Of a stretch of DNA of 64,000 nt, positions 9,356-19,232 are shown piece by piece. Each line of letters opens with the position of its first letter. Position 1 is the first letter of the stretch. Both the position numbers and the translations under genes were made by a program. The DNA is taken from the NCBI GenBank assembly GCA_046598345.1, contig JBKJIT010000003.1, forward strand, positions 5,089-69,088. The letters are read 5' to 3'. The DNA comes from Minisyncoccia bacterium (lineage in GTDB: Bacteria > Patescibacteriota > Minisyncoccia > Phycocordibacterales > UBA918). The notes beneath the pieces are model-generated. The model saw only the letters and a program-made list of their open reading frames with translations. It was not told where the DNA came from and ran no database searches.

Positions 9356-9428
9356 CCGCCCATAGCTCAGCCGGTAGAGCAGCTCCCTTTTAAGGAGAAG
9401 GTCCTTGGTTCGATCCCAAGTGGGCGGA
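9356..9428 (+). tRNA. tRNA-Lys (anticodon UUU)
   Basis: Cloverleaf by hand: acceptor CCGCCCA/TGGGCGG, D-stem GCTC/GAGC, anticodon loop CTTTTAA, T-stem CTTGG/CCAAG with TTCGATC loop. No encoded CCA. Confidence 0.85.
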
Positions 9429-15017: not shown

Positions 15018-16694
15018 GTGCCGTGGTACCATGGGGGAATGCCGATTTTTGACGATAAAACGCAACAAACTCGAGTGGAAGAACTCCATCACCGAGAGGA
15101 GGAGGCACTTATTCGTGCTCTGGCTCCGAAGTATGGGTACCAATACGTCAATCTCCATGATGTCCCAATCGATAGCGACGCACTCACCCTCATCCCGGAA
15201 GCGGATGCGCGTCTGGCTGAGGTAGTCATTTTTGCTCATGGAAACAATGTACTTTCAATTGCAATCCGTAATCCTAAGAACCCTGAGTCGATCGAAATGC
15301 TCGAGCGGATTAAAAAAATTGGATATACCTCACAGGTATTCATGGCGTCTTTAGGCAGCATTGAATATGGCTGGGAGAAGTACAAAGATATAAAAAATAC
15401 GAGTGCAGAAAAAAGGGGTGTGCTCGACATTGATCCGGATGCGATTATTTCCTTTTCGAAGAGCATTGAGTCACATTTAGACGTTGCGGCAGCAGTAGCA
15501 GAAGTACAGAAAGGAAACGGTTCTGAACAGGTTACGAAAACAATCGAAGTTATTTTTGGAGGTGCCTTGGCACTTAAAGCATCTGACGTCCACATCGAAC
15601 CTGGACCTACAACCGCACGCATTCGGTACCGTCTCGATGGTGTGCTCTGGGATACCATCGATGTGCAAAAAGCACTCTACACACTGATTATTTCGAGGCT
15701 TAAACTTCTTTCAGGGCTGAAGCTCAACATCCACAACGAAGCGCAGGACGGACGATTCACGTTTGATATCGGGGACAGAAAAGTGGAAGTCCGTTCATCG
15801 GTGATTCCAGGTGGCTACGGCGAGTCTATTGTTATGCGACTCCTCGACCCTTCTGCTTCAAGCTTCAAACTTGAATATCTCGACTTGAATACCAGACTGC
15901 GGGAAATAATTACAGCAGAGTTGAAACGTCCGCATGGAGCAATTATTACAACGGGGCCAACGGGTTCAGGAAAAACGACAGCGCTCTATGCATTCCTTCA
16001 AGCAGTCCATACTCCTGAGATTAAGATTATTACCATCGAAGACCCTATTGAATACAAACTCACCGGTATCGTACAAACACAAGTGAGTGAGGACTATTCG
16101 TTTGCGGCTGGTCTCCGTGCCGTACTTCGTCAGGACCCCGACGTTATAATGGTTGGTGAAATCCGTGATCGAGAAGTGGCGGAAACGGTTGTTCACGCAG
16201 CGCTTACTGGGCACCTCGTGTTTTCTACCCTTCACACAAACAGTGCCGTTGGTGCAATCCCTCGCCTCGTCGACATTGGTGTTGACTCACGCATGATTGG
16301 AAGTGCATTCAATTTAATCTTAGGCCAGCGACTCGTCAGGCGGCTCTGTGAGAAATGTAAGGTGGAACGAAATGCGACCACAGAGGAACAGGTGCTGATC
16401 ACAAAGATTATGGAACAGCCCGTTGCGATCCACTCACTCTTTACCGCACCCGGGTGTGATGCCTGTGGCATGAGTGGGTTTAAGGGGCGATTAGGAATCT
16501 ACGAAGCGGTACAAATTGATAAGGAAATGGATGAGGCAATCATTAGTGACCCTAGAGAAGATAGTCTTCGCATTGCGGCGAAGGTACAAAAAATTCCAAA
16601 TCTCCAACAGGATGGGATTATGAAAGTACTTGCTGGTGACACTTCGCTTGAAGAACTCTCGCGTGTTATTGATCTCTATAACGGGGGACGCTAA
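15018..16694 (+). CDS. Type II secretion / type IV pilus assembly ATPase (GspE/PilB family)
   Basis: GspE N-domain, Walker A GPTGSGKTT, MVGEIRD, C-terminal CxxC...CxxC. Start ambiguous: GTG 15018 or ATG 15039. Confidence 0.85.
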   Translation: MPWYHGGMPIFDDKTQQTRVEELHHREEEALIRALAPKYGYQYVNLHDVPIDSDALTLIPEADARLAEVVIFAHGNNVLSIAIRNPKNPESIEMLERIKKIGYTSQVFMASLGSIEYGWEKYKDIKNTSAEKRGVLDIDPDAIISFSKSIESHLDVAAAVAEVQKGNGSEQVTKTIEVIFGGALALKASDVHIEPGPTTARIRYRLDGVLWDTIDVQKALYTLIISRLKLLSGLKLNIHNEAQDGRFTFDIGDRKVEVRSSVIPGGYGESIVMRLLDPSASSFKLEYLDLNTRLREIITAELKRPHGAIITTGPTGSGKTTALYAFLQAVHTPEIKIITIEDPIEYKLTGIVQTQVSEDYSFAAGLRAVLRQDPDVIMVGEIRDREVAETVVHAALTGHLVFSTLHTNSAVGAIPRLVDIGVDSRMIGSAFNLILGQRLVRRLCEKCKVERNATTEEQVLITKIMEQPVAIHSLFTAPGCDACGMSGFKGRLGIYEAVQIDKEMDEAIISDPREDSLRIAAKVQKIPNLQQDGIMKVLAGDTSLEELSRVIDLYNGGR

Positions 16695-16702
16695 CTGACA
16701 CA

Positions 16703-16736
16703 AAAAATCTCACGCGTGGGCGTGAGATTTTTTGTG
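16703..16736 (+). terminator. Rho-independent terminator AAAAATCTCACGCG-TGGG-CGTGAGATTTTTT
   Basis: Perfect stem + T-run. Confidence 0.7.
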
Positions 16737-16840
16737 TCTAAAACTTCTTTTATGTTAGAAATGAATTTTCTTTTTGGGTCAAGGGGGCATTTAGCGTTTG
16801 TATGCTATATTCCCTCTTAACACGTCTGCACCTTGAGATC

Positions 16841-16984
16841 ATCCAGGGTATAACCCTCTAAGCAAAGGCTTCCGTATGAAAGTGGCCTTCGGAACTAAGA
16901 AATAGTTCAGCGGTCACGCTCGAAGCGAGTGCCAAAATACCCTCGTACCGAGTGCCGGTTTACTTAGAGGGTTATCTCCTGGAT
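16841..16984. ncRNA. Candidate structured RNA (unclassified) closed by a long helix (7 bp + 13 bp perfect ATAACCCTCTAAG/CTTAGAGGGTTAT) enclosing about 100 nt with several hairpins
   Basis: Long-range complementarity 16841-16862 vs 16963-16984. Internal CTCGAAGCGAG and CC(UUCG)G-like hairpins; repeated CGAGTGCC. No ORF. Confidence 0.3.
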
Positions 16985-16987
16985 ATA

Positions 16988-17056
16988 GATGCTAAAAAGA
17001 AAAACATCTCGCCTGACGGCTGAGATGAACGAACTAACATGGCTATTTTAGCATGT
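16988..17056. repeat. Inverted-repeat element copy B: ATGCTAAAAAG ... CTATTTTAGCAT with internal hairpin CATCTC..GAGATG
   Basis: Same terminal IR as 11209-11310. Confidence 0.45.
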
Positions 17057-17112
17057 TATAGTTTTTTGTCAACCCCATCCACTCTCTCTTATTTTCATAT
17101 ACAATAGACCAC

Positions 17113-18111
17113 ATGAATGATCCGGTACGCGAAAAAACTCCTTTGGAGCGAGAGGTAGGAGGAAATCTCGACCAAACGCTCCGCCCTCAAAAATGGGATG
17201 AGTACGTTGGACAGAAGAAGATCAAAGAGAATTTGCGTATTCTCCTTACGGCAGCGCGCGAGCGCGGCCACGCTGCAGAACACATACTTCTCTATGGCCC
17301 GCCAGGACTTGGAAAGACGACTCTCGCTCACTTGGTTTCAAAAACGCTTGAAACAAACTTGCGGACCACTTCAGGCCCTGCAATTGAGCGCGTAGGTGAC
17401 CTTGCGGCAATCCTCACCAACCTCTCCCCGGGAGATGTCCTCTTCATTGACGAAATTCATCGCCTCTCGAAATCTATTGAGGAGGTGCTCTACCCTGCAA
17501 TGGAGTCTGGCGTACTCGATATCATTATTGGGAAAGGCCCCTCGGCTCGTACTGTGCAACTTGATCTTCCACCCTTTACGCTTGTGGCCGCAACGACTCG
17601 CATTTCCCTCCTCTCTGCCCCACTTCGCTCACGATTCTCAGGAGGCACATTTCGACTCGAGTTTTATACGAACGAAGAGATCGGGGACATCTTGAGAAGA
17701 TCAGCAGGACTTCTAAACATCGAAGCTGGAGAAGTTATTCTCGCAAATATTTCGAAGCGCGCTCGTGCGACTCCCCGTATGGCTAACTATCTTCTCAAAC
17801 GGTGTCGCGACTTGGCCCAGCTCGAGGGAACTTCGCTGACCGCTCAGATTGTTGATCGTACATTCGAGCTGCTTGAGATTGATGCAATCGGACTCGGTGC
17901 CCCAGACCGAGCTGTGCTCGATGTGATCATTAATAAATTTGGAGGCGGTCCTGTAGGACTCAATACCATCGCAGCTGCGACGGGAGAAGAGATGTCAACA
18001 ATTGAAGAGGTGATTGAACCCTATCTCATTCGCCAAGGGCTCCTCGAGCGCACTCCCCGTGGCCGTATGGCGTCCCGAGATGCGTATGCCCATTTAGGTA
18101 AACTTGATTGA
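17113..18111 (+). CDS. ruvB: Holliday junction ATP-dependent DNA helicase RuvB
   Basis: [18 protein letters not shown] Walker A, RuvB signature regions. Confidence 0.9.
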
Positions 18112-18196: not shown

Positions 18197-18748
18197 ATGA
18201 GCGGACATAATAAATGGTCACAAATAAAACATCAGAAAGCCAAGACGGACGGCAAGAAAAGTAAAGTTTTTTCTAAACACGCGAGTGTTATTGCAATGGA
18301 GTCCAAAAAAGCTGAGGGGAACTTGAGTGCCCCGAGTCTTATTGCTGCTATCGAGCGGGCGAAAAAGGACTCGATGCCTAAGGAAAATATTGATAGAGCA
18401 ATACAAAAAGGAAAATCGGCAGACGGCTCATCGCTCAGCGAAGTATTGTACGAAACGTATGGGCCAGGAGGTACTGCGATTCTCGTCACTGCGGTTTCAG
18501 ACAATCCAAAACGTACCACTCCAGAAGTACGGCATATATTATCGAAGCTCGGGTACCAGCTCGGTGGAGTGGGTTCATCAGCGTGGGCTTTTCAAAAGAC
18601 GGCGGAAGGATACGTACCCACTATGGTCGTTGAACTCAGTGAGGCGGATGGTGAAAAACTTGCAGCGCTCGTTGAGGCACTTGAAGAACACGACGATATT
18701 CAAGATATCTTTACGACCGCCGACAGTCCGGAATCTGAGGTATCATAA
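18197..18748 (+). CDS. YebC/PmpR-family probable transcriptional regulator (short form)
   Basis: MSGHNKWSQIKHQKAKTDGKKSKVFSK... canonical YebC N-terminus. Confidence 0.75.
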   Translation: MSGHNKWSQIKHQKAKTDGKKSKVFSKHASVIAMESKKAEGNLSAPSLIAAIERAKKDSMPKENIDRAIQKGKSADGSSLSEVLYETYGPGGTAILVTAVSDNPKRTTPEVRHILSKLGYQLGGVGSSAWAFQKTAEGYVPTMVVELSEADGEKLAALVEALEEHDDIQDIFTTADSPESEVS

Positions 18749-18752
18749 AGAC

Positions 18753-19232
18753 GTGAGAGTTTTAGCACTAGATCCAGGCTATGGGCGTCTCGGCATAGCA
18801 GTTTTGGAACGAATACAAGGAACCGAAACCCTTCTCTACTCCTCTTGTATGGAGACAGATAAAGAATCGCCTATCCCAGAGCGACTGCATGTCATTGGGA
18901 ATATGGTTCTGCGCCTTCTCAAAGAGTACAAGCCGGATTTCCTCAGTGTTGAAACGCTCTTTTTCAACAAAAATATCAAAACGGGTATCGCTGTTGCTGA
19001 GGTGCGTGGCATCATACTCTATCTTGCGAAGGAACATGGGTGTACTATCTGTGAATATGGGCCACAGGAAGTGAAGGTGGCCGTAACAGGTTACGGTAAT
19101 AGCGACAAAGATGCCGTCATACTCATGGTGAAGCGCCTAGTGAAGGGTGCGCCCCCAAAGGCGATCGATGATGAGTACGACGCAATTGCCGTAGGGCTTA
19201 CCTGTCTTGCCCATAATAGGAGTGCGCGCTGA
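18753..19232 (+). CDS. ruvC: Crossover junction endodeoxyribonuclease RuvC
   Basis: VRVLALDPGYGRLGIAV... RNase H-fold RuvC motifs. GTG start 5 nt after the yebC stop. The track's 18327 start is an over-extension. Confidence 0.8.
   Translation: MRVLALDPGYGRLGIAVLERIQGTETLLYSSCMETDKESPIPERLHVIGNMVLRLLKEYKPDFLSVETLFFNKNIKTGIAVAEVRGIILYLAKEHGCTICEYGPQEVKVAVTGYGNSDKDAVILMVKRLVKGAPPKAIDDEYDAIAVGLTCLAHNRSAR

Follow-up and report, generated by a model that had tools for sequence, protein, structure and literature searches.

The DNA stretch analysed here, 64,000 nt of contig JBKJIT010000003.1 from a Minisyncoccia bacterium (in the following called the window), carries a strongly structured element in the non-coding spacer upstream of ruvB, which we read as the gene of a small RNA. 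The order of genes around it is polA (minus strand), an unknown open reading frame (ORF), a gene for a pilB-like type II/IV secretion ATPase (15018-16694, plus), the RNA (minus), ruvB, yebC and ruvC (plus), and a Trp/Tyr-tRNA synthetase gene (minus). The RNA gene is divergent from the ruvB-yebC-ruvC operon and convergent with the pilB-like gene. No ORF of more than 34 amino acids was found within 16740-17112, in agreement with an earlier note on this DNA, which had been written from the sequence alone and had described the region as a non-coding spacer.

The same note had placed a long closing helix at 16841-16984, and its arms were found exactly there. The segments 16841-16866 and 16959-16984, 26 nt each and 92 nt apart, are 88% complementary and include a perfect 13-mer pair (ATAACCCTCTAAG/CTTAGAGGGTTAT), whose exact occurrences in the window are these two sites only. 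The duplication that had been noticed between the arms was likewise recovered (near-duplicate ...CGAGTGCC blocks at 16916-16933 and 16939-16956, 83% identity), and so was a second hairpin module, in which ATGCTAAAA (16989-16997) pairs with TTTTAGCAT (17046-17054) and encloses a CATCTC...GAGATG hairpin. The 156-nt stretch has a folding energy of -66.9 kcal/mol when read as the minus strand (z -7.3) and of -63.5 kcal/mol as the plus strand (z -6.4), and for neither strand was any of 200 dinucleotide shuffles as stable. The inverted repeat and the fold at 16841-16984 are beyond chance.

Known RNA families do not account for the element. With the 4227 models of Rfam 15, which include 6S RNA, signal recognition particle (SRP) RNA, RNase P RNA, transfer-messenger RNA (tmRNA), Y RNA, riboswitches and ribozymes, the whole window gives a single match at gathering thresholds, a tRNA-Lys (9356-9428), on which ARAGORN concurs. 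Relaxing the threshold to E <= 10 over 16650-17200 gave no match on 16841-17036. The matches that did appear were terminator-type noise at 16690-16820 (hairpin 16697-16738) and one weak match to a long non-coding RNA model (E 1.8) at 17037-17194. Gathering-level matches were also missing from 17 homologous loci, and the best-scoring homologue (L004, 2690-3010) yielded only one chance match to a small nucleolar RNA model at E <= 10. SRP RNA, RNase P RNA and tmRNA, to which the earlier note had seen no likeness by eye, were rejected on comparison of their motifs by eye, with Rfam and ARAGORN in agreement. A hammerhead core was discarded as well, since the motif CUGAUGA, present in one relative (L002), is not conserved in the window or in another relative (L001). 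Full-text literature searches brought up no description of a dedicated non-coding RNA of Patescibacteria and none of a 6S RNA in these bacteria. The RNA family is absent from Rfam 15 and from the literature searched, and it is a new family of conserved orphan structured small RNA.

The proteins nearest to the window RuvB (17113-18111) come from uncultured Patescibacteria, with 79% for a lake metagenome-assembled genome (MAG) and 77% for a Candidatus Kaiserbacteria MAG. In the two closest loci nhmmer found the spacer element conserved just upstream of ruvB. A profile made from those sequences led to many more distant Patescibacteria loci, in which a common architecture emerged on reading the sequences. 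A covariance model (R1), built from 20 genome-derived sequences, matches 22 of 24 Patescibacteria-type ruvB loci and none of 58 ruvB loci from other phyla. In the window it finds one copy, at 16843-16982 on the minus strand (87.6 bits, E 2.5e-22). A metagenome scan with a pattern that specified only parts of the closing helix found at least 120 loci, among which 113 of those listed are strong covariance-model matches. This pattern biases the metagenome set to one sequence type of the closing helix, and the distribution outside ruvB-linked loci was tested with it only. The window's own clade contributed seven further distinct loci (RuvB 80-86% identical), all with the element at 70-79 bits. Three of the loci (L090, L095 and L001) stem from samples taken at Hainich and Erken. 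Altogether, at least about 142 copies were collected, 122 of the first 135 being less than 95% identical, and all of them come from Patescibacteria of the Paceibacteria/Kaiserbacteria type.

Some database titles do not fit this host range. Seven MAG records titled 'Candidatus Saccharibacteria' or 'Bdellovibrionales' (L006, L007, L009, L014, L016, L018 and L038) carry the RNA together with a Paceibacteria-like RuvB, and some of these titles may be mislabels. In two records with Saccharibacteria titles and a more distant RuvB (L023, L029) the RNA is missing. A phage origin was rejected, as viral contigs gave three chance pattern matches, all of which the covariance model turned down.

Fold, covariation and the functional strand

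The structured part of the window copy is composed as follows.

16841-16984, minus strand: structured core, closing helix and three-way junction (covariance-model match, inverted repeat, z -7.3, covariation)
16959-16984, minus strand: 5' arm of the closing helix P1 in RNA sense, its inner part CCCUCUAAGUAA being the family's most conserved stretch
16841-16866, minus strand: 3' arm of P1, with no U-run after it in the window clade
16884-16956, minus strand: long irregular arm P3 (constrained fold of the window sequence)
16869-16882, minus strand: side hairpin P5, CUUUC-AUAC-GGAAG, beside the junction (fold and covariation)

The family fold is a P1 helix of 22-28 bp that leads into a compact three- or four-way junction with P3, the short side hairpin P5 and, in most relatives, another short side hairpin, P2. 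Unconstrained folding of single sequences gave the closing helix with three arms in 111 of 135 cases and with two arms in another 15. The window clade, in which P2 is absent, belongs to the two-arm group, and the window copy forms a tight three-way junction. P3 begins with P3a and a small loop, beyond which come the segment AGGA/UCCU, a one-by-two loop, a helix rich in wobbles and a tip that varies. In the window AGGG/UUCU takes the place of AGGA/UCCU, the wobble-rich helix is UUUUGGC/GCUGAA with its tandem U·G/G·U, and the arm ends in an apical hairpin. Two parts are near-invariant: the inner closing helix (AAUCUCUAAGCAAU/AUUGYUUAGAGAUU in most members, CCCUCUAAG.../...CUUAGAGGG in the window) and the P3 segment that holds the wobbles (AGGA-C-GUUCUGG/CUGGGGC-UA-UCCU). 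The tips of P2, P3 and P5, on the other hand, vary freely in length and sequence, and the core measures 123-181 nt across the family (144 nt in the window), more if leader and trailer are counted.

Covariation supports this fold throughout. Among the first 20 sequences, 92.3% of the cells pair and both-sided changes occur in 28 of 36 pairs, a result that none of 500 shuffles equalled and that compares with 39-54% in slid controls. A larger alignment of 126 sequences, made by MAFFT alone and not fitted to the structure, was 86.8% paired over 52 defined pairs, with both-sided changes in 44 of them; 0 of 500 shuffles reached any of the measures, and slid controls gave 37-56%. P1 was paired at 95.4% in these 126 sequences (20 of 23 pairs with both-sided changes), a value biased as far as metagenome homologues enter it, since the search pattern fixes part of P1. 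This bias affects neither the interior helices nor the 20 genome-derived sequences. The P3b/c helix reached 92.4%. P2, P3a and P5 reached 70-74% in the unrefined alignment and change on both sides in all their pairs (for P5, 9 of 9 across the family). P3a and P2 were recovered independently by mutual information. For example, pair 66:150 in P3a occurs in six pair types and pair 71:145 as UA (58) or GC (27). Pair 31:60 in P2 is CG (60), GU (13), AU (12) or GC (11), and pair 87:131 in P3 is GC (85), AU (24) or UA (6). In four distant members (L007, L014, L038, L047) the sequence of P1 is wholly different and the helix is preserved.

Since both strands fold, the strand has to be read from asymmetric signals. 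Canonical pairs make up 94.6% in minus sense and 84.9% in plus sense (126 sequences). In minus sense, G·U pairs outnumber A·C combinations by 74 to 21 in a first count, by 415 to 59 in the 126 sequences (a count that excludes the outer pairs touching the U-tail) and by 33 to 8 within the window clade. The tandem U·G/G·U lies beside an invariant G-C in 106 of the 126 sequences, the window (UUUUGGC/GCUGAA) included. This figure holds for each of its two wobbles, U91·G127 and G92·U126. Read in plus sense, the tandem turns into two adjacent A·C mismatches. We conclude from the sequence comparison that the functional strand of the conserved fold is the minus strand, opposite to ruvB, because the wobble asymmetry, the conserved wobbles, the promoter, the terminator and the loci in which ruvB lies further away all agree. 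A transcript of the plus strand over the element may exist, with a functional plus-strand fold being excluded.

Transcription signals on both strands

The following signals on the RNA strand were predicted in the window.

17045-17072, minus strand: putative RNA promoter with a -35 box TTGACA (17072-17067), a 16-nt spacer and an extended -10 box TGcTAAAAT (17053-17045), an 11/12 match to the consensus with the TG
16994-17027, minus strand: 5' leader hairpin CAUCUCAGCCGUCAGGCGAGAUG (17027-17005), then UUUUUCUUUUU (17004-16994), a candidate 5' stem-loop or attenuator
16739-16840, minus strand: probable 3' trailer of the primary transcript in the window clade, as there is no U-run after P1 and the next terminator is at 16738-16697
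16697-16738, both directions: bidirectional intrinsic terminator, a perfect inverted repeat of 19 bp flanked on either side by A- and T-runs

The predicted transcription start lies near 17038-17040. A strict TTGACA-N16-18-TAnnnT promoter upstream in RNA sense, nearly always with a preceding TG in the -10 box, was found in 87 of the first 92 loci with room for it, and 122 promoter-bearing loci were tabulated once later loci had been added. The arms of the second module described in the earlier note are the minus-strand -10 box of the RNA and a facing plus-strand -10-like box, and its inner hairpin is within the 5' leader of the RNA. In the nearest relatives (L201, L202) the CAUC...GAUG stem of this leader hairpin is kept and its interior changed. 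A leader hairpin followed by a U-run occurs in 23 of 114 leaders and in 7 on the other strand.

At the 3' end, a U-run directly follows the closing helix in RNA sense in 76 of 142 loci, compared with 20 of 142 in the mirror test, so that the closing helix and U-run would form a terminator in about half of the relatives. One locus (L038) has the promoter, the RNA and a separate canonical terminator in RNA orientation. In the window clade, which lacks the U-run after P1, the transcript therefore probably runs on to the terminator at 16738-16697, which ends the pilB-like gene (plus) and probably also the RNA (minus).

Three further boxes, likewise predicted, lie on the plus strand.

16990-16998, plus strand: ruvB-sense -10-like box TGcTAAAAA, which faces the RNA promoter and forms the left arm of the second module
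17100-17115, plus strand: TACAAT (17100-17105), 7 nt, and the ruvB ATG (17113), a likely promoter of a leaderless ruvB mRNA
16777-16811, plus strand: promoter-like box GGTCAAG (16777-16783), 23 nt, TGcTATATT (16803-16811), facing into the RNA gene, a candidate antisense promoter

A ruvB-sense TGnTAnnnT that faces the RNA promoter, usually as a perfect TGCTATAAT, is present in the leaders of 70 of 122 relatives. In the window clade, a TAnnAT box lies 6-9 nt before the ruvB ATG (L001, L002, L201, L202, L204, L207, L209 and L210) and there is no Shine-Dalgarno sequence. These two features together suggest that the ruvB(-yebC-ruvC) mRNA of this clade is leaderless and would thus not contain the element. 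The promoter-like box on the 3' side of the RNA gene, GGTCAAG-N23-(TGn)TATAnT, is found with fixed spacing in the window and in L001, L201, L202, L204, L205, L207, L209 and L210; L002 has the -10 part only.

As read from the sequences of most relatives, the ruvB ATG and the -35 box of the RNA, CTTGACAT, share bases (ATGTCAAG..., in frame with the conserved LDQTLRP). In the window the -35 box lies 41 nt upstream of the ruvB ATG, with no overlap. In L003-L019 and in most metagenome loci the first ruvB codons are ATG TCA AG., the reverse complement of the -35 box CTTGACAT. These codons are conserved at the DNA level because the same bases form the -35 box of the RNA.

Some relatives show peculiarities around ruvB. 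In a large clade (L116, L098, L132, L190, L089 and others) the leader has three DnaA-box-like repeats (TTATCAACA, GTATCAACA and CTATMCACA) at a spacing of about 11 nt, followed by the ruvB-sense TGCTATAAT and a second, proximal RNA-sense box ATAGTATAAT, the other promoter of the RNA being distal. This suggests that DnaA or another repeat-binding protein may act on the control region in that clade. In the window there are no DnaA-like boxes near the element and there is no excess of them overall; a replication origin was therefore rejected, despite the repeats in the leaders of these relatives. In L210-L212 an inserted MazG-like gene separates ruvB from yebC, and in L211 it is duplicated along with a fragment of the RuvB C-terminal domain. 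In the window, yebC (18197-18748, plus) is overlapped by a long ORF with an alternative start (18327-19232). RuvC makes up the C-terminal half of this ORF (Pfam, residues 145-292), and ruvC itself probably begins near 18750, as it does in relatives.

Proposed role and its rivals

Taking these data together, we consider it likely that the core at 16841-16984 is a single-copy small RNA gene on the minus strand of Paceibacteria-type Patescibacteria, the product being a probable protein-binding stand-alone RNA with a predicted transcript from 17038 to 16738-16697. According to our proposal, transcription would proceed from the near-consensus sigma-70-type promoter (17072-17045), starting near 17038, and would yield a leader of about 55 nt and the core of 144 nt, with a probable end, in the window clade, at the bidirectional terminator. 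The RNA might then act in trans as a stable folded particle, a step that we put forward with low confidence, and would bind protein via its sequence-invariant helical segments, as SRP RNA, Y RNA or 6S RNA do. The RNA promoter faces the ruvB start region or sits directly on it, so that transcription of the RNA would probably compete with that of ruvB, likely as a side effect or a second function.

The proposal of protein binding is drawn from the combination of invariant helices and conserved wobbles, freely varying tips and the lack of a downstream gene. Sequence-invariant helices with non-Watson-Crick pairs typify protein-binding sites, such as those of SRP RNA, Y RNA and ribosomal-protein operators, and not seed-type small RNAs. 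In the family described here, conserved positions are nearly all helical, and unpaired conserved runs measure at most 4-5 nt. In the window and in relatives, no gene for cis-regulation follows on the minus strand, where only the 3' end of the convergent pilB-like gene is found; hence there is no target for a riboswitch. Base pairing with mRNAs and ligand sensing for a downstream gene would thus be unlikely modes of action for this RNA.

Several points weigh against this interpretation. Transcription itself, the transcript ends and the abundance of the RNA are deduced from sequence signals. The hairpin and U-run between promoter and core could stop many transcripts before the core is reached, and a U-run after P1 is found in 0 of 10 members of the window clade. 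In addition, the conserved promoter-like box of the plus strand points into the RNA gene, coming from the 3' side, and in L204, L207 and L210 a ruvB-sense hairpin with U-run follows right after the element. The plus-strand box and the ruvB-sense hairpins could possibly represent an antisense transcription unit, which would leave the strand verdict for the fold unchanged. The P1 statistics of the metagenome homologues carry the bias of the search pattern mentioned above. Finally, protein binding is argued from the pattern of conservation, and we regard this part of the proposal as doubtful, if well within the possible.

One rival is a mainly local role, in which transcription of the RNA would repress ruvB-yebC-ruvC by promoter occlusion, polymerase collision or antisense pairing at the 5' end, the fold serving mainly for stabilisation or termination. 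The arrangement of the genes speaks for it. Among the matches listed from 75 loci recovered by the RNA pattern alone, 67 had enough flanking sequence, and in all 67 ruvB lies upstream and divergent, its protein match starting 44-316 nt from the RNA. On the downstream side the pilB-like gene, wherever seen, is convergent, and this side tolerates insertions, so that the gene may be up to 2.4 kb off. The overlap of the -35 box CTTGACAT with the ruvB ATG in most relatives fits the same idea, and the facing TGnTAnnnT in 70 of 122 leaders would make the 5' ends of the two transcripts overlap. However, a mere stabiliser or terminator needs no invariant interior, no tandem wobble and no multi-helix junction kept over class-level divergence. 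The family also persists in L204 and L047, where ruvB lies 300-470 nt from the RNA gene and the promoter remains beside the RNA, and the window itself has its -35 box 41 nt away from the ruvB ATG. We therefore consider a purely local role unlikely. In L204 the space between RNA promoter and ruvB is taken by an ORF for a 58-amino-acid MazE-antitoxin-like protein (1198-1374, minus), the sole such insertion among the loci with examined gene calls.

The element could also be the 6S RNA of these bacteria, that is, an open-promoter mimic that would sequester the sigma-70 holoenzyme and be released by the copying of a product RNA. The stand-alone gene and its strong housekeeping-type promoter speak for this, as does a core of 140-180 nt in which a long closing stem leads to an apical stem, also long and with small internal loops, and in which a hairpin lies on the 3' side of the junction. 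P1, P3 and P5 could be mapped onto the closing stem, the apical stem and the hairpin opposite the bulge. Canonical 6S RNAs are 160-200 nt long. Above their closing stem lies a large central bulge on the 5' side, with a hairpin across from it, and the apical stem has small loops; the first 11 nt of the product-RNA template region are conserved across lactic acid bacteria (PMC8414754). Conservation in the family described here is highest in the inner 5' arm of the closing stem, which would correspond to the product-RNA template region in 6S RNA, and none of the literature found links 6S RNA to these bacteria. The large central bulge, however, is missing, as the junction strands have a length of 2-5 nt. 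From the junction up to AGGA/UCCU the two strands pair with each other, and this pairing covaries (66:150, with its six pair types); most relatives have a stable hairpin, in some cases capped by UUCG, where the single-stranded template should be. The Rfam 6S models gave no match at E <= 10 on two representatives. We have set 6S RNA aside because the supposed bubble strands pair and covary, and regard it as quite improbable.

Very unlikely, in our view, is a leader of the ruvB mRNA on the plus strand, acting in cis as a riboswitch, an attenuator or a protein-binding leader. The plus strand folds well too (z -6.4), the element is always upstream of ruvB, and in the window clade such a transcript could start from the conserved TGnTATAnT box that lies ahead of the element on the plus strand (16803-16811). 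In this orientation, however, the wobble asymmetry (415:59, in the window clade 33:8) would run the wrong way, the conserved tandem would be two A·C mismatches in mid-helix, and the promoter and terminator signals would face the opposite direction. Furthermore, in most relatives the ruvB-sense -10 box TGCTATAAT is located downstream of the element, which places the element outside the mRNA, and in the window clade a separate -10 box for ruvB is found 6-9 nt ahead of the ATG. The earlier note had left open whether the element was an unclassified small RNA or a cis-regulatory leader for ruvB. The first option has stood: the comparison with Rfam that the note had proposed assigns, for Rfam 15, no family at gathering thresholds or at E <= 10, and the homologous spacers, which it had proposed to compare, are conserved and covary strongly. 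The second has not, as the selected fold is on the opposite strand (G·U:A·C of 415:59) and the promoter points away from ruvB.

A DNA-level element, i.e. a miniature inverted-repeat transposable element, a recombination site or a protein-binding palindrome, would fit the long near-perfect inverted repeat with its highly conserved arm sequence, but is hardly credible and was rejected, since the 64 kb of the window contain one copy of the element and its locus is the same in every case, its interior helices covary, a G·U over A·C asymmetry is meaningless for double-stranded DNA, and viral contigs are without it, apart from the three chance matches rejected by the model.

We thus return to the stand-alone, probably protein-binding RNA. 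A bolder version of this proposal, which we think possible though somewhat short of probable, is that of an undescribed RNA class, universal and single-copy in Paceibacteria-type Patescibacteria, that forms its own ribonucleoprotein particle (RNP) or binds a ligand via the closing helix and the tandem-wobble arm, with its expression wired face to face with ruvB-yebC-ruvC. The Patescibacteria represent a large share of bacterial diversity, and their regulation is almost unknown. An RNA conserved this deeply is usually a core cellular component, and here the closing helix can change its sequence completely with the fold unchanged, while the single-copy gene has a consensus promoter and a fixed place against the ruvB operon. 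If a new RNP class were indeed at hand, an RNA particle would take part in the control of recombination, repair or growth state in these ultrasmall symbionts. An RNA of 140-170 nt is an easily synthesised target for pull-downs, structure probing and metatranscriptome mapping, and the collected alignment is large enough to seed a family model.

Comparison with known RNAs

Among known RNAs, 6S RNA (ssrS; RF00013 and relatives) shares with the ruvB-adjacent RNA the stand-alone single-copy gene and the housekeeping-type promoter, and may be similar in size. The two may also be likened in architecture, with a long closing stem made by the ends and having a conserved inner 5' arm, a long apical stem with small internal loops, and a hairpin on the 3' side. 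The difference is in the centre, where a compact three- or four-way junction with covarying pairing takes the place of the bulge.

Y RNA and YrlA, the Ro-associated RNAs of bacteria, resemble the RNA in that 5' and 3' ends pair in a long, unusually conserved stem, with a variable module inside and a U-rich 3' end. In Y RNA the conserved end stem is the protein-binding site. In contrast to Y RNA, there is no rsr/Ro gene in the conserved neighbourhood (pilB-like gene, ruvB, yebC, ruvC, polA), and neither a bulged helix (by eye, P1 is continuous in its conserved part) nor a tRNA-like module nor an Rfam match was found.

With regard to gene arrangement, oxyS/oxyR, gcvB/gcvA and sgrS/sgrR are counterparts, each consisting of a small RNA and a divergent protein gene that share one short control region, conserved across species. 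In those pairs the neighbour encodes the transcription factor of the small RNA, whereas here it is a DNA repair operon. OxyS, GcvB and SgrS act by base pairing through single-stranded seeds, which the ruvB-adjacent RNA, with its short unpaired conserved runs, probably lacks.

The last group, orphan structured RNAs of wide conservation that were discovered through comparative genomics, comprises the raiA motif/ModT (ModT being reported as a conserved structured RNA in PMC11706538), OLE, ROOL and GOLLD. They differ from the RNA described here in sequence, fold and host range, none of their models matches it, and the ruvB RNA is tied to a single genomic position. What it has in common with them is a role not evident from sequence, transcription signals of its own, a class- or phylum-wide distribution and a definition by covariation.

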